DNA of 64,000 nucleotides from an uncultured Clostridium sp. (GCA_946500265.1 CAMMVE010000003.1:21882-85881), one strand, 5' to 3'; positions 2 to 58,608 are shown, counted from the first letter of the stretch. A program made the numbers and translations. The notes: generated by a model from the sequence alone, not told the origin.

Positions 2-751
2 ATAAAATCATATTATGCAGAAAAGAATCATATTGATCCAAGCAAGATTTATGTGGTTTCAGTAATGCCATGTATTGCTAAAAAATATGAAAGTAAAAGA
101 GAAGAAATGGAAGTGGATGGCAAAAGAGATATAGATAGCGTTATTACAACAAGAGAACTTGCAAGAATGATTAAACAAGCAAATATCGAATTTGATAAAT
201 TAGAAGATGAAACATTTGACAGTCCTATGGGAGAAGCAACAGGAGCAGCAGCAATATTTGGAGTGACTGGCGGAGTTATGGAAGCGGCACTTCGCACAGC
301 ATATGAACTTATAACAGGAAAAGAATTAGAAAAACTAGAATTCGAAGAAATAAGAGGAGCAAAGGGAATAAAAAAAGCAACTGTAAAAATAGGAGACAAA
401 GATGTAAAAGTGGCAGTAGCTCATGGACTTGGCAATGCTAGAAGAATAATGGAAGAAATAAAAAATGGAACAGCAGATTACAGTTTTGTAGAAGTAATGG
501 CATGTCCAGGAGGATGCATAATGGGAGGAGGACAACCAATAAAAAGCTCTAAAATCAGAATGACAGTTGATGTAGCCGGAAAAAGAGCAGAAGCAATGTA
601 CTCTATAGACGAAAGAAGCACAATAAGAAAATCACATGAAAATCCAGTATTAAAGCAAATTTACAAAGACTATATAGGAAAACCAGGAGAGCATAGAGCA
701 CACGAACTTTTCCATACGCATTACACTCCAATGGAAGAATATAGAATATAG
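2..751 (+). CDS. [FeFe]-hydrogenase catalytic subunit, C-terminal part (5' end lies outside window)
   Basis: Frame open from window edge; translation ...VVSVMPCIAKKYE... and MACPGGCIMGGGQP (H-cluster Cys motif) typical of HydA C-terminus; stop 749-751. Confidence 0.75.
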   Translation: MKSYYAEKNHIDPSKIYVVSVMPCIAKKYESKREEMEVDGKRDIDSVITTRELARMIKQANIEFDKLEDETFDSPMGEATGAAAIFGVTGGVMEAALRTAYELITGKELEKLEFEEIRGAKGIKKATVKIGDKDVKVAVAHGLGNARRIMEEIKNGTADYSFVEVMACPGGCIMGGGQPIKSSKIRMTVDVAGKRAEAMYSIDERSTIRKSHENPVLKQIYKDYIGKPGEHRAHELFHTHYTPMEEYRI

Positions 752-789: not shown

Positions 790-884
790 ACATATTTTTT
801 GATTACTAGATAATGGCTTTAAAAAAGAATTTTACCGCAAGACCTTTATCTAGTAATTTTTTTGATTAAAAAACAGAAAAGTAC

Positions 885-913
885 TTGAAAAACAAACAGC
901 AATAATGTAAAAT
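885..913 (+). promoter_or_regulatory. Sigma-A-like promoter of surface-protein cassette copy 1 (TTGAAA-17-TAAAAT)
   Basis: -35 TTGAAA 885-890, 17-nt spacer, -10 TAAAAT 908-913; same architecture at 3947, 17193, 58296 and 37352. Confidence 0.45.
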
Positions 914-1034
914 AAGAACATATCAAGAATCATATAGCCTAAAGTCAAATAATTGAAATACAAAATAATAGGGCAAAAAATAATACAAAAAAATAAAACA
1001 TAAGACGAGTATAATGGAAAAGGAGAAAAGACAC

Positions 1035-1103
1035 ATGAAAAGAAATAGAAACGCCAGAACCGTTGATACTGTAAGAGAGAGAGAGAGAGAGAGAGTAATT
1101 TAG
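1035..1103 (+). CDS. Putative leader-peptide uORF (MKRNRNARTVDTVRERERERVI) spanning the (AG)11 tract
   Basis: AAGGAG ~11 nt upstream of ATG 1035; equivalent SD-preceded uORFs at 4090-4146, 17278-17331, 58383-58484; translation unproven. Confidence 0.3.
   Translation: MKRNRNARTVDTVRERERERVI
1074..1095. repeat. (AG)11 dinucleotide microsatellite
   Basis: Perfect AG x11 read directly; identical tract at 4120-4141 and 17307-17328. Confidence 0.95.
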
Positions 1104-1286
1104 AAAAATTAAGCTTTATTTGTTGTGCACAAAATAAAATAGAAATAAAAAATAGATATGAGAGCATAAATAAAACAGATTATTTTGCAATATTTGAGTT
1201 GATAGTTACAAAGCAACTATTATTGCAGGATAGTCTGTTTTATTGACCTTTTGAAAAGAACAATACAAATTTCAGGAGGTAAGAAA

Positions 1287-3251
1287 ATGTTAATAAAAAT
1301 AAAAAGTAATGATATAGAAAAATCAGAAAAAGACAATGGTATAACATTAGTTGCATTAGTAATAACGGTAATAATTATAATAATTCTAGCGACGGTAACA
1401 CTAAACTTTACATTCGGAGAAGATGGAATAATAACGAAGGCAAACCAAGCAAAATACATGGCAGAATTATCAACATTTCAAGAAGAACTAGGGCTATATA
1501 AAGCAAATAAACAAATCTCAGAAGAAGGATTTAGTGCAGAGAGTATAACAGCAGGAGAAGGAAACTTAAGTTATGTAACAGATGATGGAATAGTAACAGA
1601 AGGAACAATATATGATGTAATAACAAGTTTAAGAGGAAGTAGTTTTGCAGGCAAAATGGAGATAATAAAAGGAGAGCTACTAATAAACTCACAAGATATG
1701 GAGGAGATAAGAGTAGCACAAAGTATGGGAATACAAGTAAATCCATATATAATAGTAGATGGAGAACTAAAGTCAGATGGAGCAAACCTAGCACTAATGG
1801 ATAGTTCTGGAACACTAACAATACCAGATGGAGTAACAGCAATAGGAGAGGGAGCATTTGCAGATTTAAGTGGATTAAAAACAATAATAATACCAGGGAC
1901 AGTAAAAGAAATAAGGCAAAATGCATTTAGAAATAATGCAGATTTAGAGAATGTGATTTTACAAGAAGGAGTGGAAGTAATAGGATATAGAGCTTTTCAA
2001 GAATGTGGTAACCTAAAAAATGTAGAATTACCAGAGAGCTTGATAGAGATAGGCGCGGGTGCATTTTTTAGATGCAGTAGTATAAATAATATAATAATAC
2101 CATCGAAGATAGAAATAATAAATGCTTATACTTTTTATTATTGTACTAGTTTGACAAATATAGAATTACCAGATGGACTACAAACAATAGGTGGTTGGTC
2201 TTTTCAAAATTGTACTAGTTTAGAAGAAATATATATACCAGGGAGCGTAAATAGCATAAATAGTACCGCATTTATGAACTGTACAAGTTTAAACAATATA
2301 GAAGTGGCAAGTGGTAATCAACATTATAAATATGATGAGGCAAGTGGAATGTTAATAACAACAGATGGAACAAATATTGTATTTATATCTGCTGCAATTT
2401 TAAGAAGCACAAACACTTTAAACATACCACAAGGAGTAACAAGTTTTACTACAGACATAAGTGAATATAGAAATATAACAACCATAATAATACCAACAAG
2501 TTTAGAAAGAATAGGAACTGCGGAAATATTCCCATTAACAATAAGTAATGTAGAAGTGGCAGAAGGTAACAATTATTTTACAGAGGAAAATGAGTGCTTA
2601 TATAATAAAGATAAAACCAATTTAATTATGTGCTTTACAAAAGATTCAACAGTAAAACTAGCAGATACATTAACAACAGTAAACGATTTTTCATTTAAAC
2701 AAGCACCTAACATAGGACAAGTGAATTTCCCAGATGCTGTTACCACTATAGGAGCTCAAGTATTCACACCTGGCCTTACAAGTTTGGAAAATATAAATAT
2801 AGGGCCAAATGTAACATATATACATCCACTATTTAAATGGAATAATTATTATGGAGAAGTAACAATAGATGCAAATAACCCAAACTACACTATAGAAGAT
2901 AATGAGATATATAACAAGGATAAAACCGAATTAATAGCAGTCTTGTATGAAATTAATGGGCAATACATTGTAAAAGAAGGAGTGACAAAAATAGGAGATA
3001 ATGCATTACATTATAGAACAAATATGACTTCGATAGTACTACCAGATGGATTAAAAGAAATAGGAAGTTCTTTCCAAAATAGTGGATTAACTACAATATA
3101 TATACCAAACAGTGTAGACACGATAGAAAGTAATGCTTTTCTAAATGCAGCAAATCTAACTCAAATCCAAATAGACAAAGAGCCTGGAAGTATAGCAGGC
3201 TCGCCATGGGGAGCAATAAGAGGAGATAGAATAGTAGAGTGGCTAAGATAA
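1287..3251 (+). CDS. BspA-type leucine-rich-repeat (LRR_5-like) surface protein with prepilin-like N-terminal hydrophobic segment
   Basis: AGGAGG 8 nt before ATG 1287 (ORF-track start 1251 has no RBS); repeated ~23-aa units xIGxxAFxxCxxLxxIxIPxSVxxI; N-term KDNG-ITLVALVITVIIIIIL resembles class III signal (Ala not Glu at +5). Confidence 0.8.
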   Translation: MLIKIKSNDIEKSEKDNGITLVALVITVIIIIILATVTLNFTFGEDGIITKANQAKYMAELSTFQEELGLYKANKQISEEGFSAESITAGEGNLSYVTDDGIVTEGTIYDVITSLRGSSFAGKMEIIKGELLINSQDMEEIRVAQSMGIQVNPYIIVDGELKSDGANLALMDSSGTLTIPDGVTAIGEGAFADLSGLKTIIIPGTVKEIRQNAFRNNADLENVILQEGVEVIGYRAFQECGNLKNVELPESLIEIGAGAFFRCSSINNIIIPSKIEIINAYTFYYCTSLTNIELPDGLQTIGGWSFQNCTSLEEIYIPGSVNSINSTAFMNCTSLNNIEVASGNQHYKYDEASGMLITTDGTNIVFISAAILRSTNTLNIPQGVTSFTTDISEYRNITTIIIPTSLERIGTAEIFPLTISNVEVAEGNNYFTEENECLYNKDKTNLIMCFTKDSTVKLADTLTTVNDFSFKQAPNIGQVNFPDAVTTIGAQVFTPGLTSLENINIGPNVTYIHPLFKWNNYYGEVTIDANNPNYTIEDNEIYNKDKTELIAVLYEINGQYIVKEGVTKIGDNALHYRTNMTSIVLPDGLKEIGSSFQNSGLTTIYIPNSVDTIESNAFLNAANLTQIQIDKEPGSIAGSPWGAIRGDRIVEWLR

Positions 3252-3335
3252 GATTAGTTTTAGAGTAAATAAAAGGCTGATTCAAAAATATTATGCAAAA
3301 GAAAATTGCCTACAAAATATTAAAAAAATAAATGA

Positions 3336-3373
3336 AAAATTGGTGGAGAATTAGCTCCTCTACCAATTTTTTG
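3336..3373 (+). terminator. Intrinsic terminator after LRR gene 1
   Basis: Imperfect hairpin AATTGGTGGAG..CTCCTCTACCAATT followed by TTTTTTG. Confidence 0.45.
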
Positions 3374-3639
3374 TTAGCATCAAACTAACAAATAAATTAA
3401 AAAATCCGTTACTTGTCCCAAAATGTGATTTGATAAATAGCTTTAATATAGTAATTTAAAAAAAATTATGATATACTAATGAGTATATAAAGATTAGTTT
3501 CAACGAAATAGCGGACAAGTATGTTTAATAAATTTGATTAACTAATAGTATAAATATAAAAATGGAGAAGAAATTATACATGTACATTTTGAAAGACTAA
3601 CTGACAATGGATTTGATAGTGTTAGGTTTGAACTTCCAA

Positions 3640-3870
3640 GTTGTAAAATACTATACAGATGAAGAAATAGAAATGTTTAGAGCGATAGTAGAAAGAGGTT
3701 TGCCATCTTTTTATAGATGGGCTAGACAAGGAGGGATTCTTAGTGCCTAATATACTAGAAATTTTACGGTTATAAAATTTATTTTTGGTCAAATGAGAAT
3801 AATGAGCCTATTCATATACACATTTCAAAAGGAAAGACAACACAAAACCCAGAGCAAGAAGTAAGATTTT
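3640..3870 (+). pseudogene. Degraded remnants of a DUF4160-like gene (..NENNEPIHIHISKGK.. motif) and a neighbouring small gene, split over frames
   Basis: Short frames ..YYTDEEIEMFRAIVERGLPSFYRWARQGGILSA* and ..TVIKFIFGQ / NENNEPIHIHISKGKTTQNPEQEVRFYC*; NEPxHxH motif recalled for DUF4160; no intact ORF. Confidence 0.3.
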
Positions 3871-3946
3871 ATTGTTAATGGTTGGAAGTTATAAGTTATA
3901 ATATATAAAGTTATTCCGTGAAGATGTAAAAAAATAAAATATATAC

Positions 3947-3975
3947 TTGAAAAATAGATGCTAATAAGGTAAAAT
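3947..3975 (+). promoter_or_regulatory. Promoter of cassette copy 2 (TTGAAA-17-TAAAAT)
   Basis: -35 3947-3952, -10 3970-3975; same context as 885-913. Confidence 0.45.
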
Positions 3976-4334
3976 AGAAAAAGTTAATATAAAAGAAGGA
4001 TATATAGCAAAAAGAGTAAATTTTAAACAGCATATTGCGTATTAAATAACGATAAGCATAAGAGTAAAAAACGAAGGAGAATGAAAAAAATGAAAAACCA
4101 GCAAACCGTTGATATTGTAAGAGAGAGAGAGAGAGAGAGAGCATAATTTAGAGAAATTAAGCTTTATTTGTGATGCACAAAATAAAGTAGAAATAAAAAA
4201 TAAATATGAGTATATAAATAAAACAGATTATTTTGCAATATTTAAGTTGACAGATACAAAGCAACCATTATTGCAGGATAGTCTGTTTTATTGACCTCTT
4301 GAAAAGAACAATATAAATTTCAGGAGGTAAGAAA
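3976..4334 (+). promoter_or_regulatory. Conserved 5' leader copy 2 (uORF 4090-4146 with (AG)11, GGATAGTCTGTTTT at 4276-4289)
   Basis: Near-identical to 914-1286. Confidence 0.4.
4120..4141. repeat. (AG)11 microsatellite
   Basis: Perfect AG x11. Confidence 0.95.
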
Positions 4335-6308
4335 ATGTTAATAAAAATAAAAAGTAATGATATAGAAAAATCAGAAAAAGACAATGGTATAACATTAGTT
4401 GCATTAGTAATAACGGTAATAATTATAATAATTCTAGCGACGGTAACACTAAACTTTACATTCGGAGAAGATGGAATAATAACGAAGGCAAACCAAGCAA
4501 AATACATGGCAGAATTATCAACATTTCAAGAAGAACTAGGGCTATATAAAGCAAATAAACAAATCTCAGAAGAAGGATTTAGTGCAGAGAGTATAACAGC
4601 AGGAGAAGGAAACTTAAGTTATGTAACAGATGATGGAATAGTAACAGAAGGAACAATATATGATGTAATAACAAGTTTAAGAGGAAGTAGTTTTGCAGGT
4701 AAATTAGAAATAATAAAAGGAGAGCTACTAATAAATTCACAAGATATGGAAGAAATAAAAGTAGCACAAAGTATGGGAATACAAGTAAATCCATACATAA
4801 TAATAGATGGAGAACTAAAGTCAGATGGAGCAAACTTAGCACTAATGGATAGCACAGGGACATTAACAATACCGGATGGAGTAACGAAGATAGGAAATGG
4901 AGCATTTGCAAACTTAAGTGGCTTAAAGACAATAATAATACCAGGAACAGTAAAAGAGATAGGACAAGATGCTTTTAGAAATAATGCGGATTTAGAAAGA
5001 GTGATATTACAAGAAGGTGTAGAAATAATAGGTACAAGTGCATTTTATAGGTGTGAAAACCTTACAAATATAAGTTTACCCAACAGCATAAAAACTATAA
5101 AAAATCAAGCTTTTATGGAATGTGATGTTTTAGACAATATATCAATACCAAATCAAATACAGATAATAGAAAACTATACATTTTATAGTTGTGACAATTT
5201 GACAAATTTAAAATTATCAGATAGTTTACAAAAAATAGAAGCTGCTGCTTTTGCTGGTTGTACAAAATTAAATAATATCTATTTGCCTATGAATTTAAAA
5301 GATATAACATATAATGCATTTGATAATTGCATAAATTTAATAAATATAGAAATAGCGAAAGAAAATACGAAATATAGTTATAATAAAGAAAATGGAATAT
5401 TATTAGATATAGAAAGCAATGACATTATATTCATATCAAGTTCAGCATTAAATAATATAACCACATTTAGTATACCAGATGGAATTAGAGAATTTAAAAA
5501 TGATATTAGTCAATATACTAATATACAAACAATAATTATACCTAAGAGTTTAGAAAAGATTTATTTGATAGAAATTCTTCCAAAAAGTATATCAAATATA
5601 GAAATTATTGAAGGAAATACAAATTTTGTTGTTGAAAATGAATGCTTATACAATACAGATAAAACAGAATTAATGTTATGTTTTACAAAAGATACAGAAG
5701 TAAATTTAGCAAGTAGCATAGTAAAAGTATATGATTACGCATTTAAGTGTGCACCTAATTTAGAGAATATAACATTTCCTAATTCAGTAACTAGCATAGG
5801 TGGTCAAGCACTAAGAGACTGCACAAAGTTAAAGAATGTATATATAGGACCAAATGTATCATCTATAAATCCAATTTTTAAATTTAAAAACTATAGTGGA
5901 ACAGTAGTTATTGATGAAGCAAATCCAAATTACAGTATTGAAAATAATGAAATATATAATAAAGACAAGACAGAGCTAATTTCTATATTACATGATATTC
6001 AGGGTAGTTATACAGTAAAAGATGGGGTGACTAAAATAGGAGACAGAGTATTTCATTATATGGGGAAAATGACAGAAATAATATTGCCAGAAGGCTTGAA
6101 AGAAATAGGAACTTCTTTTAATTCTTGTACAAGATTAACAGAAATATTTATACCAAACAGTGTAGATAAAATAGCATCAGATGCGTTTAAAAATTCAACA
6201 AACTTAATGCATATACGTATAGATAAAGCTCCAAACACTATAGAAGGAGCACCATGGGGAGCTATAAGCTGGGATAGAGCAGTAGAGTGGCTAAGACCGG
6301 AAGAATAA
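4335..6308 (+). CDS. BspA-type LRR surface protein paralog with prepilin-like N-terminus
   Basis: AGGAGG before ATG 4335; first ~140 aa near-identical to gene at 1287 then divergent LRR_5-like repeats; C-terminal APWGAISWDRAVEWLR shared. Confidence 0.85.
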   Translation: MLIKIKSNDIEKSEKDNGITLVALVITVIIIIILATVTLNFTFGEDGIITKANQAKYMAELSTFQEELGLYKANKQISEEGFSAESITAGEGNLSYVTDDGIVTEGTIYDVITSLRGSSFAGKLEIIKGELLINSQDMEEIKVAQSMGIQVNPYIIIDGELKSDGANLALMDSTGTLTIPDGVTKIGNGAFANLSGLKTIIIPGTVKEIGQDAFRNNADLERVILQEGVEIIGTSAFYRCENLTNISLPNSIKTIKNQAFMECDVLDNISIPNQIQIIENYTFYSCDNLTNLKLSDSLQKIEAAAFAGCTKLNNIYLPMNLKDITYNAFDNCINLINIEIAKENTKYSYNKENGILLDIESNDIIFISSSALNNITTFSIPDGIREFKNDISQYTNIQTIIIPKSLEKIYLIEILPKSISNIEIIEGNTNFVVENECLYNTDKTELMLCFTKDTEVNLASSIVKVYDYAFKCAPNLENITFPNSVTSIGGQALRDCTKLKNVYIGPNVSSINPIFKFKNYSGTVVIDEANPNYSIENNEIYNKDKTELISILHDIQGSYTVKDGVTKIGDRVFHYMGKMTEIILPEGLKEIGTSFNSCTRLTEIFIPNSVDKIASDAFKNSTNLMHIRIDKAPNTIEGAPWGAISWDRAVEWLRPEE

Positions 6309-6800
6309 ATGAGCACAGTACTCATATAGCAGAAAAAGTATAAAAATGCAAGAACACGATAATATAATAAGGAATTGCTTACTCCAAAGTTATACAAAGG
6401 TCGAAATATATCATAAAATGTCGAAAAGTTATGATTGATTTCGACCTATATTTGTGATATAAATATAAACATAATGATTAGGTCTAATGTGCAATTCAAA
6501 TTATTACTTTATGAAATAGTTTAATAGTATCTATTTTTTACTCAATAATATAATTAGTTCAATATATTAAAATTGAAATCTTGATTAATTAAAATATTCT
6601 GCATACAAATACATATAAATTTTTATTATTATTTGTTAATATATCTTAATATTTCATTAGTTTTCAATCAAATAAAATCCAAATGATTAATTTAATATAT
6701 TTAATTTAAACAAAATCTCAACAAAAAACCAAGAGAAAAATAAAAAATATACAATGTACACAAGATTTAATTGTTAAATAAATTTTAGGAGGAATTGTGT

Positions 6801-7703
6801 ATGGAACAAAACAAATCAAAAGAAATAAAGAAGGAAGAAATATTATCACCGATGATAGATGTAGTATTTCAAATGTTATTTGGAGAGGTGGGGAGTGAGA
6901 AGATAACACAAGATTTTTTAAGTGCAATATTAAAAGAAAAAATAGAAACAATAAGTTTAGATCAAAATATAGTATTACGAAGAGAGTTACCCAAAGGGAA
7001 AATGGGTATAGTAGATGTGTTAGCAAAAATAAATGACAATGAATTTTGCAATGTAGAAATGCAAATGGCAGACAAAAAGAATATGATAAAGAGGATGTTA
7101 TATTACTGGGCAAGGCAGTATGCAAAAGAAATAGGCAAAAAAGAGGAGTATAAAGAACTAAAAAGGACAATAGTAGTACTAATAGCAAATTTTGAATTTG
7201 ATAAATTGAGAGAATTAGGAGTACATAGCAGATGGAAAATAATAGAGGAAGAAAGGCGAAAAATAGTATTGACAGAGGATTTAGAGTTTAATATAATTGA
7301 AGTACCAAAAATGTATAAGGAGAAACAAGCAAGAGACGAAAAGCTAATAGAATGCCTAAAATTCTTGGAGAATCCGGAAAGCAAAGAGGTGCAGGGGTAT
7401 ATGAAAAAGAATGAGAATATGAAAGAAGCAAGAGAGAAACTAGACAAAATGAGTAAGGATGAGAAAGTAAGAAGGATGGCAGAATTAAGACAAAAGGCAC
7501 TAATGGATGAAAGAGAAGCTGAATATACAGGTTATATTAATGGGTTAGAAGATGGAATAAAGCAAGGAATGAAACAGGGACTAGAGCAAGGAATAGGGCA
7601 AGGATATAGAGAAATTGCGAAGAAAATGAAAGGCAAAGGAAAAGATATAAATGAAATAATTGAATTAACCGGATTAAGTAAAGAAGAAATAGAAAAGTTG
7701 TAA
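6801..7703 (+). CDS. Rpn-family recombination-promoting nuclease / PD-(D/E)XK putative transposase (YhgA-like)
   Basis: TAGGAGG 8 nt before ATG 6801; conserved N-terminal ..MIDVVFQMLFG..FLSAILK..DVLAKIND..NVEMQ.. block and Gly/Gln-rich C-terminal tail typical of the family. Confidence 0.75.
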   Translation: MEQNKSKEIKKEEILSPMIDVVFQMLFGEVGSEKITQDFLSAILKEKIETISLDQNIVLRRELPKGKMGIVDVLAKINDNEFCNVEMQMADKKNMIKRMLYYWARQYAKEIGKKEEYKELKRTIVVLIANFEFDKLRELGVHSRWKIIEEERRKIVLTEDLEFNIIEVPKMYKEKQARDEKLIECLKFLENPESKEVQGYMKKNENMKEAREKLDKMSKDEKVRRMAELRQKALMDEREAEYTGYINGLEDGIKQGMKQGLEQGIGQGYREIAKKMKGKGKDINEIIELTGLSKEEIEKL

Positions 7704-7720: not shown

Positions 7721-7819
7721 TTAATGCATGTACGTATAGATAAAGAGCCAAATACTATAGAAGGAGCACCATGGGGAGCAATAGCTTGGGCAAAATATGA
7801 TATAAATAACCAAGAATAA
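7721..7819 (+). pseudogene. Orphan 3' fragment of a third BspA-LRR paralog (..LMHVRIDKEPNTIEGAPWGAIAWAKYDINNQE*)
   Basis: 32-codon frame matches C-terminal 30 aa of genes 1287..3251 and 4335..6308 (NLMHIRIDKAPNTIEGAPWGAISW); no upstream ORF. Confidence 0.55.
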
Positions 7820-8083: not shown

Positions 8084-8995
8084 ATGGAAAACGAGAAAAA
8101 ATTTAAGTCCGGTTTTGTTTCTATATTAGGTAGAACAAATGTAGGAAAATCGAGTATAATTAATAGTTTGGTTGGAGAAAAAGTTGCCGCAATTGCGAAC
8201 AAACCTCAAACTACCAGAACTGTAATAAGGGCTATTGTTAATAGACCAAATTCACAAATTATTTTTATTGATACTCCTGGCATTCACAAACCAAAGTCTA
8301 AACTTGGAAATGTAATGGTTGAAAATGCTTTTGAAGTGTCTAAAGATGTTGATGTTGTAATTTTTGTAGTTGAAGCCACTTCTGAGAATATTGGCAAAGG
8401 CGACAGAATGATTTTAGACAAGATAAAAGAAGCTAATAAAAAGACAATATTGGTTATCAATAAAATTGATTTAGTAGATAAAGCACAAGTTGCTAGTTTA
8501 ATTGATTTATTTAGCAAAGAGTATGACTTCGCGAGTATAATCCCAGTTTCTACAGTAAAAAATACAAATATAAATGTGATTTTGGATGAAATTGAAAATA
8601 ACCTTAAAGAAGGTCCAGCATATTATAATATAGAAGAATATACTGACCAAACTACAAGAGATTTAGTACAGGAGACTATTAGAGAAAAAGCGTTAAAACT
8701 TTTAAATGACGAAGTACCTCATGGAATTTTAGTTGAAGTAGATAAAATGAAAATGCGTAAAACCATGGAAAATGAAAAATTTTATAACATAGAAGCTACT
8801 ATTTATTGCTTGAGAGAATCTCATAAAGGCATAATTATAGGGAAAAATGGTAGCATGCTAAAGAAAATAGGAACGTATGCAAGAGAAGATTTAGAAAGAA
8901 TGTTAGGTATAAAAATAAATTTGAAGTTATGGGTAAAGGTTAGAGAGGATTGGATTAATAGTGATAAGTTTATCAAACCTTTCAAGGCATTTTAA
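8084..8995 (+). CDS. era: GTPase Era
   Basis: G1 GRTNVGKSS, G2-G4 motifs, C-terminal KH domain; followed by yqzL-like and recO as in Firmicutes. Confidence 0.9.
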   Translation: MENEKKFKSGFVSILGRTNVGKSSIINSLVGEKVAAIANKPQTTRTVIRAIVNRPNSQIIFIDTPGIHKPKSKLGNVMVENAFEVSKDVDVVIFVVEATSENIGKGDRMILDKIKEANKKTILVINKIDLVDKAQVASLIDLFSKEYDFASIIPVSTVKNTNINVILDEIENNLKEGPAYYNIEEYTDQTTRDLVQETIREKALKLLNDEVPHGILVEVDKMKMRKTMENEKFYNIEATIYCLRESHKGIIIGKNGSMLKKIGTYAREDLERMLGIKINLKLWVKVREDWINSDKFIKPFKAF

Positions 8996-9173: not shown

Positions 9174-9437
9174 ATGGAGATGATTAATTTGATTAAAAAG
9201 TTAGCCTGGAACACATTTAAAAACACAGGAGATATTAATACTTTTCTAGAATTAGTAGAGGTAGAAAATGTCGAAAAAAGTATGGGACTAGATGCAAATA
9301 AAGATATAGCAAAAGGTGAAAATATTATAGAAAATAATAATATAGCTTATAAAAATATGGTAGAGGCGGAAAAACAAAATGGGTTTAATAAAGGTGAAGG
9401 GAATAGTAATAGCGGAGAACAATATGAGCGACTTTGA
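9174..9437 (+). CDS. YqzL-family small protein
   Basis: N-terminal ..LAWNTFKNTGDINTFLELVE.. resembles YqzL (era-yqzL-recO context); overlaps recO start. Confidence 0.45.
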   Translation: MEMINLIKKLAWNTFKNTGDINTFLELVEVENVEKSMGLDANKDIAKGENIIENNNIAYKNMVEAEKQNGFNKGEGNSNSGEQYERL

Positions 9438-10107
9438 TAAAATGGTCACTATTTTGACTCCAAATGGTAAAATCGGGTGTGCTGCCAAAGGCGCAAGAAG
9501 ACCGAAAAGTCAGCTTATGGCAGCTACTCAATATTTATGCTTTGGTGAATATCTTATTTATCAAGGTGTCAGTACTTATCATATTAACTCATGTGAAGTT
9601 ACCGAAGTTTTCTATAATCTTAGAACGGATATAGACAAGCTTCAATATGCTGCACATATTACCAAAATAATTAACGATGTTACTGATGAAAACCAAAATA
9701 CATATAAAATTTTGCAGTTATTTTTGAATACTCTTTATGTATTATCTGAAACAGATAAAAACATGGATTTAGTAATTTCCATTTTTAAAATCAAATTAAT
9801 GAGTTTACTAGGATTTACACCTATTATTGATAGATGTGCCAATTGTAAGAAGACAGACAGCATATTAAATCACTTTAGCTTTAAAGATAGTGGCCTAAAA
9901 TGTGATGCATGTAGCAGAGCAGACAAGGGAGCTTTAGAAGTTTGTGAGGCTACTGTAAATGCTATAAAATATATAATAATGGCACCTCCTAAAAAACTTT
10001 TTTCATTCAACTTATCAGAGCAAGCGCTTAAGGAGCTTGAAATTATTGCTAATTTATATTTAAATGATAAATTAGACAAAGAATACAAATTAGAAAAATT
10101 CTTTTAA
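9379..10107 (+). CDS. recO: DNA repair protein RecO
   Basis: N-term ..GIVI..KMVTILT..GKIGCAAKGARRPKS.. and C-terminal CxxC...CxxC zinc finger. Confidence 0.85.
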   Translation: MGLIKVKGIVIAENNMSDFDKMVTILTPNGKIGCAAKGARRPKSQLMAATQYLCFGEYLIYQGVSTYHINSCEVTEVFYNLRTDIDKLQYAAHITKIINDVTDENQNTYKILQLFLNTLYVLSETDKNMDLVISIFKIKLMSLLGFTPIIDRCANCKKTDSILNHFSFKDSGLKCDACSRADKGALEVCEATVNAIKYIIMAPPKKLFSFNLSEQALKELEIIANLYLNDKLDKEYKLEKFF

Positions 10108-12681: not shown

Positions 12682-13182
12682 ATGGCCATGAAAGTTGTAT
12701 TTATTTCTAACTTTTTAACACATCATCAAGTTCCATTTTGCTTAGAAATGCAAAAAAGACTAGGAGACGATTTCAAATTTATTTCAACTGTAAAAATATT
12801 TGACTGGAGATTAAAATTAGGATTTAAGGACCTAGATAATGAATACGATTTTGTTGTAAAAGCATATAAAGATGCACAAACATGGAAATATGCTAAAAAG
12901 CTAGCAAATGAAAGTGATGTTGTAATAATAGGTTCAACTACAGATGACTTGATAGAAGAAAGATTAAGACAAGATAAGCTAATTTTCAGATATAGAGCAA
13001 GAGTTTTTATATTTCCAGATGGATTTTTCAAAACAGCATGCGATTTAGACAAGTTAAAATTATTTTATGGAAGACATTTAAAGTATAGAAAGAATGAAAA
13101 CTTATATTTACTATGTGCAAATGCATATGGACCTGAAGATTTTAGAAAGTTAGGTTTGTATAAAAATAAAATATACAAATGA
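12682..13182 (+). CDS. Hypothetical protein (polysaccharide-cluster context)
   Basis: 166-aa ORF with GGAG before ATG; may be first half of a gene split by frameshift (frame of 13184 ORF open from 13154). Confidence 0.45.
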   Translation: MAMKVVFISNFLTHHQVPFCLEMQKRLGDDFKFISTVKIFDWRLKLGFKDLDNEYDFVVKAYKDAQTWKYAKKLANESDVVIIGSTTDDLIEERLRQDKLIFRYRARVFIFPDGFFKTACDLDKLKLFYGRHLKYRKNENLYLLCANAYGPEDFRKLGLYKNKIYK

Positions 13183-13183
13183 T

Positions 13184-13441
13184 GTGCTATTTGTATACAA
13201 TGGAGTGATGAAATCGAATTCATATTTAATAGCTGATTTCCCTGTTCATCATTATATTAGTGGAAGAAAAAATAGTATGACAACAACATTAAATTTAAAA
13301 AATATTTATGACACTGTAGATAATATTAGAGATATGCTAGAATTAAAAAAGCAAAGTGATACAGTAGAAATTAACACAAGAATAAAAAGAGAAATTGATA
13401 TGTGTAAAAAGCGTTTAGAGGATATATATTATTCAATGTAA
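13184..13441 (+). CDS. Hypothetical small protein (GTG start), possibly 3' part of preceding gene
   Basis: 85-aa ORF overlapping frame of upstream gene. Confidence 0.3.
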   Translation: MLFVYNGVMKSNSYLIADFPVHHYISGRKNSMTTTLNLKNIYDTVDNIRDMLELKKQSDTVEINTRIKREIDMCKKRLEDIYYSM

Positions 13442-17192: not shown

Positions 17193-17221
17193 TTGAAAAA
17201 GAAATGCTGTTAAGGTAGAAT
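17193..17221 (+). promoter_or_regulatory. Promoter of cassette copy 3 (TTGAAA-17-TAGAAT)
   Basis: -35 17193-17198, -10 17216-17221; A-rich UP-like tract upstream. Confidence 0.45.
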
Positions 17222-17563
17222 AAAGGCATACTAAGATAAAAAAAGTAAAAGGATTAAAAAAATACAAAGGAGAAAAAATGAGAATGCATAGAACCATTGA
17301 TACTGTAGAGAGAGAGAGAGAGAGAGAGTAGAATTTAGAGAAACTAGCTTTTTTTGTGATGCAAAAAAAGTAGTAAATATATTAAAGATAGAAACAATAA
17401 ATATATGTGCAAATAAAGCAGATTATCAAGAAGTATTAGGAGTTTTTGAAATTCTAATGCTAACGGATAGTCTGTTTTTTTGGTGAGTTTATTAAAAACA
17501 AAATAAAGAGATAATAATAAAAGAAAGATTAAAATTTTAAGAAAACGGAGGTACAAAAAGAAA
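17222..17563 (+). promoter_or_regulatory. 5' leader copy 3 (uORF 17278-17331 MRMHRTIDTVERERERE, (AG)11, GGATAGTCTGTTTTTTT 17464-17480)
   Basis: Diverged but alignable to leaders at 914 and 3976; same order of elements. Confidence 0.4.
17307..17328. repeat. (AG)11 microsatellite
   Basis: Perfect AG x11. Confidence 0.95.
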
Positions 17564-28729: not shown

Positions 28730-28839
28730 AGTGCTAACTTTGTAAATACTTTGTGAAAATTCAAAAATTGTATTGAAAAAAATAATTTAATATGATAATA
28801 TATAGTTACATTAAGAAAATAAATATTAATTCCCTGCGT

Positions 28840-29012
28840 AGTGCGTGTAGACTGGAATTTTAGAACCAACAATAGATTAAAGGGAGTCCGCCTTTGAATG
28901 TGGCGTGTAAGCTTGCATTTATGTAAGAAACCCAGGAGCATTCAACAAGACACCCACCTGTGAAAGCAGGCTCTTAAAATTTCATTCATCTTGCGGCTAA
29001 TGTGGGGGATTT
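28840..29012 (+). promoter_or_regulatory. GC-elevated ~170-nt candidate structured RNA / cis-regulatory leader ending in terminator-like CACCCAC...GTGGGGGATTTTTG
   Basis: Local GC far above the 28% background with no ORF; GNRA-like hairpin CCTG-tgaaag-CAGG; T-run just before RBS of gene at 29031; family not identified. Confidence 0.3.
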
Positions 29013-37899: not shown

Positions 37900-38550
37900 A
37901 TGCATTTTGAAATAATAGATAAAGCTAGGTTTGAATTATTAAAAAAAATAACAGAAAATGTAAGTATTCCTAATTATTATATGATAGGTGGCACAGGACT
38001 TTCGCTACAGTTAGGACTTCGAGAATCTTTTGATTTTGATTTTTGCGTAAAAGACCAATTTAATAATGAACTCCTATTAGAAGAACTAAAATGTTTAGGT
38101 CAAACTGAAGTAAAACAAAATCAAAAAGGTACTTGCGATGTAATAATTAATGGAGTACAAGTTAGCTTCTTTTATTATCCTAACAAAATTATAAACAATT
38201 ATGTAACAACAAAAGAAATCCCTAAATTAAAAATAGCTAGTATTCTAGATATTGCAATAATGAAAATTGTAGCAATAGGAGGAAGAGGTGCTAAAAAAGA
38301 TTTCTTTGATTTATATCAGATAATAAATAAATGTAATATTAGTCTTAATGATTTAGCAAATGGATTAATTCAAAAGTGTGGAACAAATGTGAACTTTGCC
38401 AATATTGTTATGGGATTAAGCTATTTTGAAGATGCAGAACAAGAAAATTTACCTAAAACTTTTGTAGAATACAACTGGAATGAAATAAAAAAATTTTTTG
38501 TGAAATTTCAAGCAGAATTTTGCAACATATTAGAAAAACTAGAAACATAA
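37900..38550 (+). CDS. AbiEii/AbiGii-family nucleotidyltransferase toxin (DUF1814-like)
   Basis: N-terminal ..YYMIGGTGLSLQLGLRESFDFDFCV.. matches the GGTAL...R.S.DIDF nucleotidyltransferase motif of AbiEii toxins. Confidence 0.65.
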   Translation: MHFEIIDKARFELLKKITENVSIPNYYMIGGTGLSLQLGLRESFDFDFCVKDQFNNELLLEELKCLGQTEVKQNQKGTCDVIINGVQVSFFYYPNKIINNYVTTKEIPKLKIASILDIAIMKIVAIGGRGAKKDFFDLYQIINKCNISLNDLANGLIQKCGTNVNFANIVMGLSYFEDAEQENLPKTFVEYNWNEIKKFFVKFQAEFCNILEKLET

Positions 38551-58295: not shown

Positions 58296-58324
58296 TTGAA
58301 AAATGAATACTGTTAAGGTAGAAT
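58296..58324 (+). promoter_or_regulatory. Promoter of cassette copy 4 (TTGAAA-17-TAGAAT)
   Basis: Identical spacing and near-identical sequence to 17193-17221; downstream leader retains uORF start (58383) but (AG)n reduced to (AG)3 and GGATAGTCTG motif lost. Confidence 0.4.
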
Positions 58325-58608
58325 AAGAATATGCTAGAAGGTTACGCATGAACAAATGAAAATAAGGAGAAAAAATAAAGAAATGAAAATTGATAAAACT
58401 CTTGATACTGTAGAGAGATACAATTTACTCAACATGGATATCGAAATCAGTATCAGAAGAGAACTATACAGAAGAATTAGATAGAATAAAAACAAGTGAA
58501 GGCTTAAGAAATGATATTGAATTAAGTCTTATTTGTGATATAGAAAAAGTAAAAAGGAAGAATGTCACAATATAGTACGAAAAAACTAGAAAAAGGAGAT
58601 AAAAGAGT

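Follow-up and report, generated by a model that had tools for sequence, protein, structure and literature searches.

A putative phase-variable surface-protein family with (AG)n leader reading frames and 5' gene conversion in an uncultured Clostridium

We analysed a stretch of 64,000 nucleotides (nt) from an uncultured Clostridium sp. (GCA_946500265.1 CAMMVE010000003.1:21882-85881; ~30% G+C), hereafter the window, in which the two long open reading frames (ORFs) between an [FeFe] hydrogenase gene and era encode paralogous leucine-rich repeat (LRR) proteins, LRR-1 and LRR-2. Our main conclusion, to which we assign a probability of roughly 0.65, is that these genes belong to a surface-protein family that is phase-variable by slipped-strand changes of an (AG)n tract in a leader ORF, combined with gene conversion of the 5' ends of the genes. 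In the mechanism we propose, recombination or conversion between paralogs would overwrite the leader-proximal ~0.6-1 kb and leave the LRR bodies to evolve as separate stable lineages, and the same homology would mediate deletions and fusions that give one-gene and chimeric alleles. Slipped-strand change in the (AG)n of the leader ORF would then vary the expression phase. In two phases the ribosome would stop 0-2 codons past the repeat, at least 66 nt before a hairpin, leading to termination of transcription with the ribosome-binding site (RBS) of the main gene masked (predicted OFF). In the third phase the leader ORF would run ~50 codons further and end at the 3' foot of the hairpin, abutting the arm that pairs with the RBS, and its translation would prevent formation of the terminator and expose the RBS (predicted ON). 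All three (AG)11 tracts of the window are predicted OFF and lie one repeat unit from ON. The repeat polymorphism, its effects on reading frame, the hairpins and the recombinant alleles are read from the sequences; from them we infer the ON phase, termination of transcription at the hairpin, and a possible purpose in evading or varying host recognition.

Leader reading frames, repeats and hairpins

Each LRR gene has its own leader (Table 1), starting with a promoter-like site that is a match to a consensus, of which shuffled sequence holds equally many. The sequence-only reading of this DNA had already recorded an (AG)11 upstream ORF in both leaders, which is correct, without recognising it as a likely switch. 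Leader ORF 1 has AAGGAGA 7 nt 5' of its ATG and enters the repeat from codon 14; across strains the leader ORF keeps its RBS and ATG. By scripted translation, all three window leader ORFs, including that of a third family member (the 17.3-kb leader), end at n=11 0-2 codons past the repeat, with a length of 17-22 codons. The long phase of 67-71 codons is reached at n = 7, 10 or 13 in the LRR-1 and 17.3-kb leaders (69 codons for leader ORF 1 at n=10 or 13, and 67 in the n=7 strains) and at n = 9 or 12 in the LRR-2 leader. Across all the leaders collected, the ORF has 15-22 codons in the short phases versus 67-85 in the long phase. In four diverged leader types one post-repeat frame is open for 49-68 codons and the other two are closed within 2 codons; in each type, shuffled sequence yields the open frame with P ~0.01 and the full pattern with P ~0.0007. 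Leaders assembled in the long phase occur at the comparison loci L028, L032 (two leaders), L035 and L039, where gene callers annotate them as 67-69-aa genes, and public protein data include five clusters of long-phase leader peptides.

To compare strains, we retrieved the same locus through an identical Era protein from about ten other assemblies and through a 98%-identical Era from ten more. The repeat number ranges from 6 to 12 in the 44 tracts from the collected loci: the LRR-1 leader has n = 6, 7, 9, 10, 11 or 12 across strains, and the 17.3-kb leader n = 10, 11 or 12 with identical flanks, with n=8 in L034, where the downstream flank has diverged. Several strain pairs differ solely in n over 250 nt upstream and 450 nt downstream. 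For instance, the LRR-1 leaders of the window and L032 have n=11 and n=10 with no mismatch in these flanks, and the 17.3-kb leader of strains with identical Era has n = 10, 11 or 12 with no mismatch in 700 nt. As in known contingency loci, an uninterrupted tract lies in an RBS-preceded ORF, its length varies between near-identical genomes, and this length decides between a long and a truncated form of the ORF. A scan of a genome collection with the pattern TTGATRYTGT-N(10-40)-AATTTAGARAAAYTA gave 19 matches, all due to chance and without an AG tract; an AG-anchored pattern found four true leaders among eight matches in a metagenome scan.

Downstream of the leader ORF, hairpin 2 is far more stable than its shuffled counterparts and is followed by a U-tract in both LRR leaders, and comparable hairpins are present in the 17.3-kb leader (Table 1) and in L028, where the hairpin stands at the same place despite a 45-nt insert (z -3.5). 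Immediately 3' of it, hairpin 3 is predicted to mask the RBS. In the long phase the leader ORF ends with a TGA (1244-1246, 4292-4294 and 17484-17486) located at the hairpin's 3' foot; the first of these overlaps the last hairpin base. The short-phase stop of leader ORF 1 (1101-1103) lies 66 nt before hairpin 2. No Rfam family matched the leader at the gathering threshold, and the E-value mode returned only sub-threshold look-alikes of microRNA hairpins. In a MAFFT alignment of the diverged leaders the hairpin arms are not in register. A further small hairpin just 3' of the repeat was dropped in spite of seeming covariation, its z scores of -0.3 to -2.5 being no better than shuffles.

The closest precedent for this arrangement is the control of the pil1 and pil3 pilus loci of Streptococcus gallolyticus, in which GCAGA repeats alter the length of a leader peptide, and long peptides reading into a terminator hairpin have been shown experimentally to raise pilus transcription (Danne et al. 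2014, PMC3894217). Shared with that system are a simple sequence repeat in a short leader ORF, a stem-loop before a gene for a surface structure, and several such loci per genome. As in pil1, the repeat here lies in an RBS-preceded leader ORF, predicted to be translated, with the short stop upstream of the hairpin and the long stop at it. In pil1 the short-stop phases give low expression and the phase reading into or through the hairpin gives high expression; here we know the layout from sequence, and it is by this analogy that the long phase is predicted to be ON. The two systems differ in the repeat unit (AG in 6-12 copies here versus GCAGA in 13-23 copies), in the long phase (one of three here, the out-of-frame ones in pil1), in the products (monomeric transmembrane-anchored LRR or non-LRR proteins versus sortase pili) and in the host (an uncultured low-GC Clostridia-like bacterium), and only here is the repeat fused in frame to the gene in some relatives. 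A further difference from pil1 is that the long ORF stops exactly at the hairpin that masks the RBS, suggesting translational control as an additional layer.

Several observations weigh against a leader switch of this kind. The predicted ON phase is found in just 5 of the 44 tracts, versus the third expected if n were neutral, and n=11, the mode (24/44), is a predicted OFF phase in every leader type. The LRR-2-type leader (with 'cataattt' after the repeat) is nearly uniform: 13 of its 14 tracts have n=11 and one has n=10, while the other leader types vary freely. The dominance of n=11 could reflect selection for OFF, or a tract that varies less readily, or matters less, than we propose. The 44 tracts are not independent, as several stem from one strain recovered in more than one sample, and the comparison sequences are metagenome assemblies throughout, in which mis-joins at repeats are possible. 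A consensus terminator scan flags nothing here. Hairpin 2 is rich in A+U and its loop is large, and in the LRR leaders the run of U is broken by an A (UUUUAUU); since the scan does not flag it, we use "terminator" for hairpin 2 in a putative sense. Because the small post-repeat hairpin is no better than shuffles, no scheme of alternative structures is supported either.

The short phase of most tracts and the dominance of n=11 would also be expected if the leader ORF were what decay has left of an ancestral N-terminal extension, with n neutral and the genes expressed constitutively from their own RBS. This is rather improbable, albeit the best placed of the alternatives; the strong RBS and ATG of the main genes and a fourth copy in the window that lacks both the repeat and the hairpin agree with it. 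The extension that this reading takes as ancestral would be the fused form seen in relatives, which we count in favour of the switch: in L042 (a 1.65-Mb contig), L043 and L044 the LRR coding sequence itself opens with the repeat, encoding MK..TVDTV(RE)n or M..LDTV(RE)n. The full protein (charged tail, GITLVALV anchor and LRR; 675-733 aa when intact) is read only at n=10 or 13, the off-phase genes stop at 22-23 codons, and the assembled n is 11 or 12, differing between samples for the same gene. This fused form is the textbook contingency-gene layout with a repeat in the 5' coding region, and it shows a real N-terminal extension to be the homologue of the window species' long leader frame. A mere relic, however, would be expected to lose its repeat, as the fourth copy did. 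It would not account for the open third frame with stops in the other two frames right after the repeat in four diverged leader types, for the conserved RBS and ATG of the leader, for the predicted masking of the main RBS, or for a very stable hairpin and U-tract kept between leader and gene despite sequence turnover.

Length-variable repeats can also act on promoters, as in Haemophilus hif, where a (TA)n tract sets promoter spacing. By analogy, (AG)n could be a spacer between TTGATA upstream and TAGAAT, CATAAT or TAATTT downstream, its length setting the -35/-10 distance; hexamer-like motifs do flank the repeat in all leader types, and n=6, which gives a 17-nt spacing, occurs alongside n=7 (L046, L052, L035, L039). 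We consider this quite unlikely, since the usual n of 10-12 would make a spacer of 25-29 nt, far from functional, and the flanking motifs are equally accounted for by the leader peptide (..T-V-D-T-V) and the two out-of-frame stops. Such a spacer also leaves unexplained why the RBS and ATG are conserved, why the third frame is open for 50 codons and why some relatives have the repeat in coding sequence.

Conversion of the 5' module between stable LRR bodies

Alignment by blastn of 868-3248 with 3929-6296 gives 76.3% identity over 2394 columns, colinear and nearly gap-free, and the divergence is distributed unevenly along the pair, from a block of 360/360 identical nt to 64.7% in the LRR bodies (Table 1). 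The 5' identity block is far beyond chance and begins at the leader ORF, not at the promoter; the longest exact repeat, of 385 nt, is the core of a conversion tract. There are no synonymous differences in codons 1-120, and third-position identity in the LRR body is ~50%. The near-identical 5' module that the sequence-only reading described is therefore real from ~1035 to ~1990, and its quoted N-terminal residue differences (GKM/GKL, MDSS/MDST) are correct. Its start at 885/3947 is not, since 885-1034 is just 44.8% identical; the promoter falls outside the block, and upstream of 1035 the two leaders share only the promoter-like TTGAAA-17-TAAAAT.

The strain comparison separates the behaviour of the two ends. 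Each LRR body is 100% identical in all the strains that carry it (window, L032, L033, L036), and about 20 assemblies contain three body types at this locus, namely type 1, with variants of 93-95%, and types 2 and 8, which are 72% identical to each other. The mosaic region is the first ~600 nt of the LRR genes: LRR-1 of L032 equals that of the window save for ~1647-1737, where LRR-2 variants stand, and LRR-1 of L033 has a foreign first ~200 nt. L047 and L048, which come from different samples (L048 representing four more similar places), carry a single-gene chimera: its leader and first ~190 nt are those of a gene 1, and from there on it matches gene 2 of L046 exactly. The orthologs in L001 and L002 are 95-100% identical in their 3' part with the types (A/B) of their N-terminal domain swapped. 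Recombination or gene conversion, as had been suggested, is thus at work at the locus, attested by the absence of synonymous changes over 360 nt, the tracts in L032 and L033, the L047/L048 chimera and the L001/L002 swap. Because the bodies are constant and the 5' ends mosaic across strains, the 5' identity is, on these comparisons, best described as concerted evolution, driven by gene conversion and unequal recombination in the shared module, not as shuffling of LRR cassettes.

The locus also varies in gene content. The single-gene loci L034, L035 and L039 are without window 3794-6154 and keep a 142-nt tail of LRR-2; in L034 window 3793 is joined to 6155 at a CAAA microhomology. The number of genes (one or two) differs among strains, as do the presence and position of an adjoining Rpn-family gene; at the era locus, other strains lack this gene, keep a fragment of it or have it on the opposite flank of the LRR gene. 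Decayed fragments on either side of LRR-2, of a DUF4160-like gene and of an LRR gene, point to repeated gain and loss.

The sequence-only reading had likened the pair to variable surface antigen loci, in which a constant expression and anchoring module would receive variable LRR cassettes by conversion, as with Neisseria pilE/pilS or Borrelia vlsE. A common 5' end before divergent bodies fits this, and so does the population-level pairing of leader 1 with body type 1 or 8 and of leader 2 with type 2 or 8. It is nonetheless largely refuted, and we hold it very unlikely, since each copy is complete, having a promoter, leader ORF, RBS and start of its own, and since the breakpoints fall in the 5' module, never within the LRR array. 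A tblastn search with both proteins for silent or promoterless LRR cassettes within the 64-kb window found only the decayed remnant of 25 codons. The search of related strains proposed earlier did yield recombinant 5' ends and one or two gene copies, with LRR segments that proved invariant; at the three body types mentioned, each identical wherever it occurs, the bodies are not variable cassettes. Nor is the module constant: it is the mosaic part, and it is common to the non-LRR genes at 17564 and 58609. What remains of the likeness to pilE/pilS and vlsE is that conversion between related sequences alters a surface-protein gene; the layout of expression site and silent archive is not present within the window, the ligand-binding LRR part is invariant between strains, and conversion here homogenises rather than diversifies, because the converted part is the conserved 5' end.

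Assemblers might alternatively have collapsed or cross-joined paralogs or strains, a concern given that metagenome assemblies are the only source and that contigs break within the LRR 5' region (L036-L038, L049-L055). We give this little credence: independent samples (window, L032, L033) agree in the two-gene layout and its identical block, the single-gene allele recurs in three (L034, L035, L039) and the chimera in both L047 and L048, long-read and short-read assemblies are concordant for P0033 and the long-read-style contigs L002-L004 are mutually concordant, and a 22-nt repeat is far shorter than a sequencing read. Least likely of all is a recent tandem duplication with strong purifying selection on the N-terminus and no ongoing conversion: the N-terminal anchor is conserved family-wide, as it would predict, but selection on the protein leaves synonymous differences, of which there are none in 120 codons versus saturation elsewhere in the genes, a duplication recent enough for 100% identity in one block is incompatible with ~65% elsewhere, and tract ends vary by strain, with 5' types swapped between orthologs.

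For the combination of a 5' dinucleotide repeat with conversion between paralogs, the closest known case is that of the bab genes of Helicobacter pylori. The outer-membrane protein genes of that species (babA/babB/babC, oipA, hopZ) carry 5' CT repeats with frame-dependent ON/OFF expression, and the bab paralogs have near-identical 5' ends and divergent middles, between which recombination yields chimeras and moves the repeat-bearing 5' end (PMC5483490). The likeness extends to the repeat (CT being AG on the other strand), paralog conversion, and copy number and chimeras that vary by strain. The repeat lies in a separate leader ORF here versus the signal-peptide coding region in bab, which the L042-type relatives alone match; the LRR genes form a tandem pair versus dispersed bab loci; and the proteins, envelope and organism differ.

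The proteins, the wider family and its genomic setting

Both proteins match Pfam LRR_5 (PF13306) with 237.3 and 274.9 bits against a curated cutoff of 27.7, in four stretches each. Translation is assigned to ATG 1287 and ATG 4335, each with AGGAGG 8 nt upstream; TTG 1251, the start chosen by the ORF finder, is not that of LRR-1, because AGGAGG precedes the ATG by 8 nt, and an identical 654-aa protein in public data (P0023) has a gene call with the same start. An AlphaFold 2 model of LRR-2 built with 49 homologs (mean predicted local distance difference test, pLDDT, 88.7; predicted template-modelling score, pTM, 0.80), from which we also read the architecture of its paralog LRR-1, has a disordered charged tail (1-17), a hydrophobic helix (18-43) starting with GITLVALV, a long helix (48-78), a small beta domain (~94-165) and then an LRR solenoid. 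Foldseek matches this model best, among solved structures, to 4gt6 (E 3e-15), 4fs7, PcpA 4cp6 and TpLRR 6mlx (target-normalised template-modelling score 0.75), which are LRR cell-surface proteins from gut commensals and pathogens. Judged by sequence and model, LRR-1 and LRR-2 are BspA-type LRR paralogs, presumably located at the cell surface given the predicted N-terminal transmembrane helix and charged tail. They resemble BspA-type proteins such as Tannerella BspA, Treponema LrrA/TpLRR, PcpA, 4gt6 and 4fs7 in the LRR_5 repeats and the solenoid, and differ from them in the anchor, with its charged tail, GITLVALV, long helix and two-type small beta domain; this anchor is not a lipoprotein signal, nor of the choline-binding, LPXTG or Por type. 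In the literature searched we found no report of repeat-based switching of LRR_5 proteins.

The anchor motif G-ITLVALVIT(V/I)II is near-invariant in family members that are otherwise 40-50% identical and have unrelated ectodomains. Between the anchor helix and the LRR array, the small domain (residues ~63-190; 1473-1856 and 4521-4904) has two sequence types, A (FQEELGLYKANKQISEEGF...) and B (YKEELSMWQMGKSMEHEEF...), which pair freely with various tails and LRR bodies across strains and species. The extreme C-terminus had been held similar, and with 81.7% identity in the last 60 nt it is; as its PWGA..W motif is invariant in 49 family members, it is a conserved family feature and not evidence of recombination.

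The anchor motif recalls a prepilin cleavage site minus the Glu at +5. In ..NG|ITLVALV.. the Gly at -1 is present and +5 is Ala, not Glu (A23, near-invariant in 49 members). A type IV pilin-like identity had no support from hidden Markov models and no significant fold match: of the two earlier suggestions for a HMMER search, LRR_5 was matched by both genes, and N_methyl had no Pfam match at E<=10 in the N-terminal 187 aa, nor TIGR02532 any at E<=1 in NCBIfam. The part of the window's ORFs scanned as neighbours contains no prepilin peptidase or pilus-assembly genes, and these ORFs are housekeeping, Rpn-family, AbiEii-like or without a Pfam match.

In the window the family has four members, with LRR ectodomains (genes at 1287 and 4335) or non-LRR ectodomains (17564 and 58609). 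Each combines the same type of promoter-like site with a short ORF that has a good RBS and encodes M..T(V/I)D(T/I)V(RE)n; (AG)11 and the long hairpin are present in three of the four. Searching the module against the window gave a leader match at 17290-17403 (81% identity) and an anchor match at 58639-58768 (77%). The 470-aa protein of the third member has no Pfam family bar a faint FGE-sulfatase match. Relatives in public metagenome data number more than 2,400 with LRR and more than 4,600 without, in unnamed families.

The gene of the fourth member is split by a +1 frameshift (TTTCGG, ~58713) into 58609-58725 and 58760-60079. Three paralog types have a +1 frameshift, TTT-C-GG, at one and the same Phe-Gly position past the anchor helix (window 58705-58725, with the shift at ~58713; L046 ~7724; L049 ~133; L056/L057 ~5955), where intact copies read TTC GGA or TTT GGA. 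About 20 of the 120 best LRR matches are 599-602 aa long and start with MAELSTF, consistent with a split by frameshift, and CGG is nearly unused in the window (5 of 14,475 codons). The UUU-CGG sequence has the look of a hungry-codon site for programmed +1 ribosomal frameshifting; alternatively, conversion may have spread a frameshifted allele.

Several other features of the setting deserve mention. A second Rpn-family gene (PDDEXK_2; 19495-20292) lies directly 3' of a family member, and a weaker, Pfam-negative C-terminal Rpn-like fragment (60652-61044) follows a further one. The locus 3' of recO varies among strains with the same Era protein (window 12682-13400; L032 compared with L033, L036 and L038): the window allele has a 166-aa ORF (12682-13182), and other alleles have two small ORFs (164+85 aa, L032) or two glycosyltransferase genes (381+265 aa). 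This region is a second surface-related locus that differs among strains. A 6S RNA gene (Rfam RF00013, 108.7 bits) occupies 28828-29012 between truB and a PrmC-like methyltransferase gene, and an ORF with an AbiEii-like toxin domain (E 4e-9; 37900-38550) stands immediately 5' of the ribosomal-protein cluster.

Table 1. Features of the window and identity between the LRR-1 and LRR-2 segments
Feature	Position	Strand	Remarks
LRR-1 promoter-like site	885-913	+	TTGAAA-17-TAAAAT; consensus scan
Leader ORF 1 (upstream ORF)	1035-1103	+	22 codons at (AG)11: MKRNRNARTVDTVRERERERVI
(AG)11 in leader ORF 1	1074-1095	+
Hairpin 2, LRR-1 leader (76 nt)	1169-1244	+	then UUUUAUU; -42.2 kcal/mol, z -7.6, 0/200 shuffles as stable
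Hairpin 3, LRR-1 leader	1246-1280	+	ACCUUUUGAAA pairs with UUUCAGGAGGU, masking RBS GGAGG (1275-1279); minimum-energy and centroid folds
LRR-1	1287-3251	+	654 aa; Pfam LRR_5 E 4e-71
LRR-2 promoter-like site	3947-3975	+	TTGAAA-17-TAAAAT; consensus scan
Leader ORF 2	4081-4146	+	21 codons at (AG)11: MKKMKNQQTVDIVRERERERA; 69-71 codons at n=9 or 12
(AG)11 in leader ORF 2	4120-4141	+
Hairpin 2, LRR-2 leader	4217-4292	+	then UUUUAUU; -42.5 kcal/mol, z -7.8
RBS-masking hairpin 3, LRR-2 leader	4294-4328	+
LRR-2	4335-6308	+	657 aa; Pfam LRR_5 E 9.5e-83; architecture as LRR-1
Third member	17193-18976	+	promoter-like TTGAAA-17-TAGAAT ~17193; leader ORF 17278-17331; (AG)11 17307-17328
Hairpin of 17.3-kb leader	17415-17478	+	then U7; other inner stem, z -5.5
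Third member, gene	17564-18976	+	470 aa; GITLVALV anchor, non-LRR ectodomain
Fourth, degenerate member	58296-60079	+	TTGAAA-17-TAGAAT ~58296; leader ORF from 58383; AGAGAGA only; no hairpin
Anchor motif sites	1338-1400, 4386-4448, 17633-17700, 58639-58700
Identity, upstream of leader ORFs	885-1034 vs 3947-4080		44.8%
Identity, from leader ORF	1035-1272 vs 4081-4320		89.2%
Identity, central block	1273-1632 vs 4321-4680		360/360
Identity, 3' of central block	1633-1990 vs 4681-5038		87.4%
Identity, LRR body	1991-3188 vs 5039-6236		64.7%
Identity, end of genes	last 60 nt of each gene		81.7%
Longest exact repeat	1267-1651 = 4315-4699	+	385 nt
[FeFe] hydrogenase gene, 3' end	53-751		upstream of LRR-1
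Decayed DUF4160-like gene remnants	3560-3840	+	LRR-1/LRR-2 spacer; Pfam DUF4160 E 4.8e-7 on 39-aa fragment
Rpn-family PD-(D/E)XK nuclease/putative transposase gene	6795-7703	+	PDDEXK_2 E 1.9e-45; TIGR01784 E 1.7e-44
LRR-gene remnant (last ~25 codons)	7721-7795	+	tblastn 80% identity to LRR-2 C-terminus; repeat family D6
era	8084-8995
recO	9379-10107
nusA-infB and ribosomal-protein cluster			beyond era and recO

Possible implications for surface variation in Clostridia

Phase variation in gut Firmicutes and Clostridia is chiefly known from invertible promoters, and contingency loci driven by repeats are characteristic of Neisseria, Haemophilus, Campylobacter and Helicobacter. The components described here are known in kind, as contingency loci, leader-peptide attenuation and bab-like conversion; here they would come together in a large undescribed family. 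Taking the fused and split forms together, we tentatively suggest, at somewhat less than even odds, that one portable 5' module (promoter, (AG)n leader ORF, terminator and masked RBS) may run this large unnamed family of anchored surface proteins in uncultured low-GC bacteria of gut type. It would exist in a fused state, as a translational switch, or in a split state, as an attenuation switch, with conversion spreading it among paralogs and the +1 frameshift as a possible second layer.

On the side of annotation, these results correct the variable calling or omission of a 67-71-aa 'gene' and the truncation of the fused genes by gene callers. In the literature searched, S. gallolyticus pili were the one case of a leader-peptide/terminator switch. 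If the proposed (AG)n leader switch is real, it would be a second, independent case, and one extending across a whole multigene family of putative adhesins, whose relatives would show how a switch in coding sequence can become an attenuation switch. It would also account for assemblies breaking or differing at these loci, and the repeat length in metagenomic reads could then stand in for a direct measure of whether surface antigens are ON or OFF.

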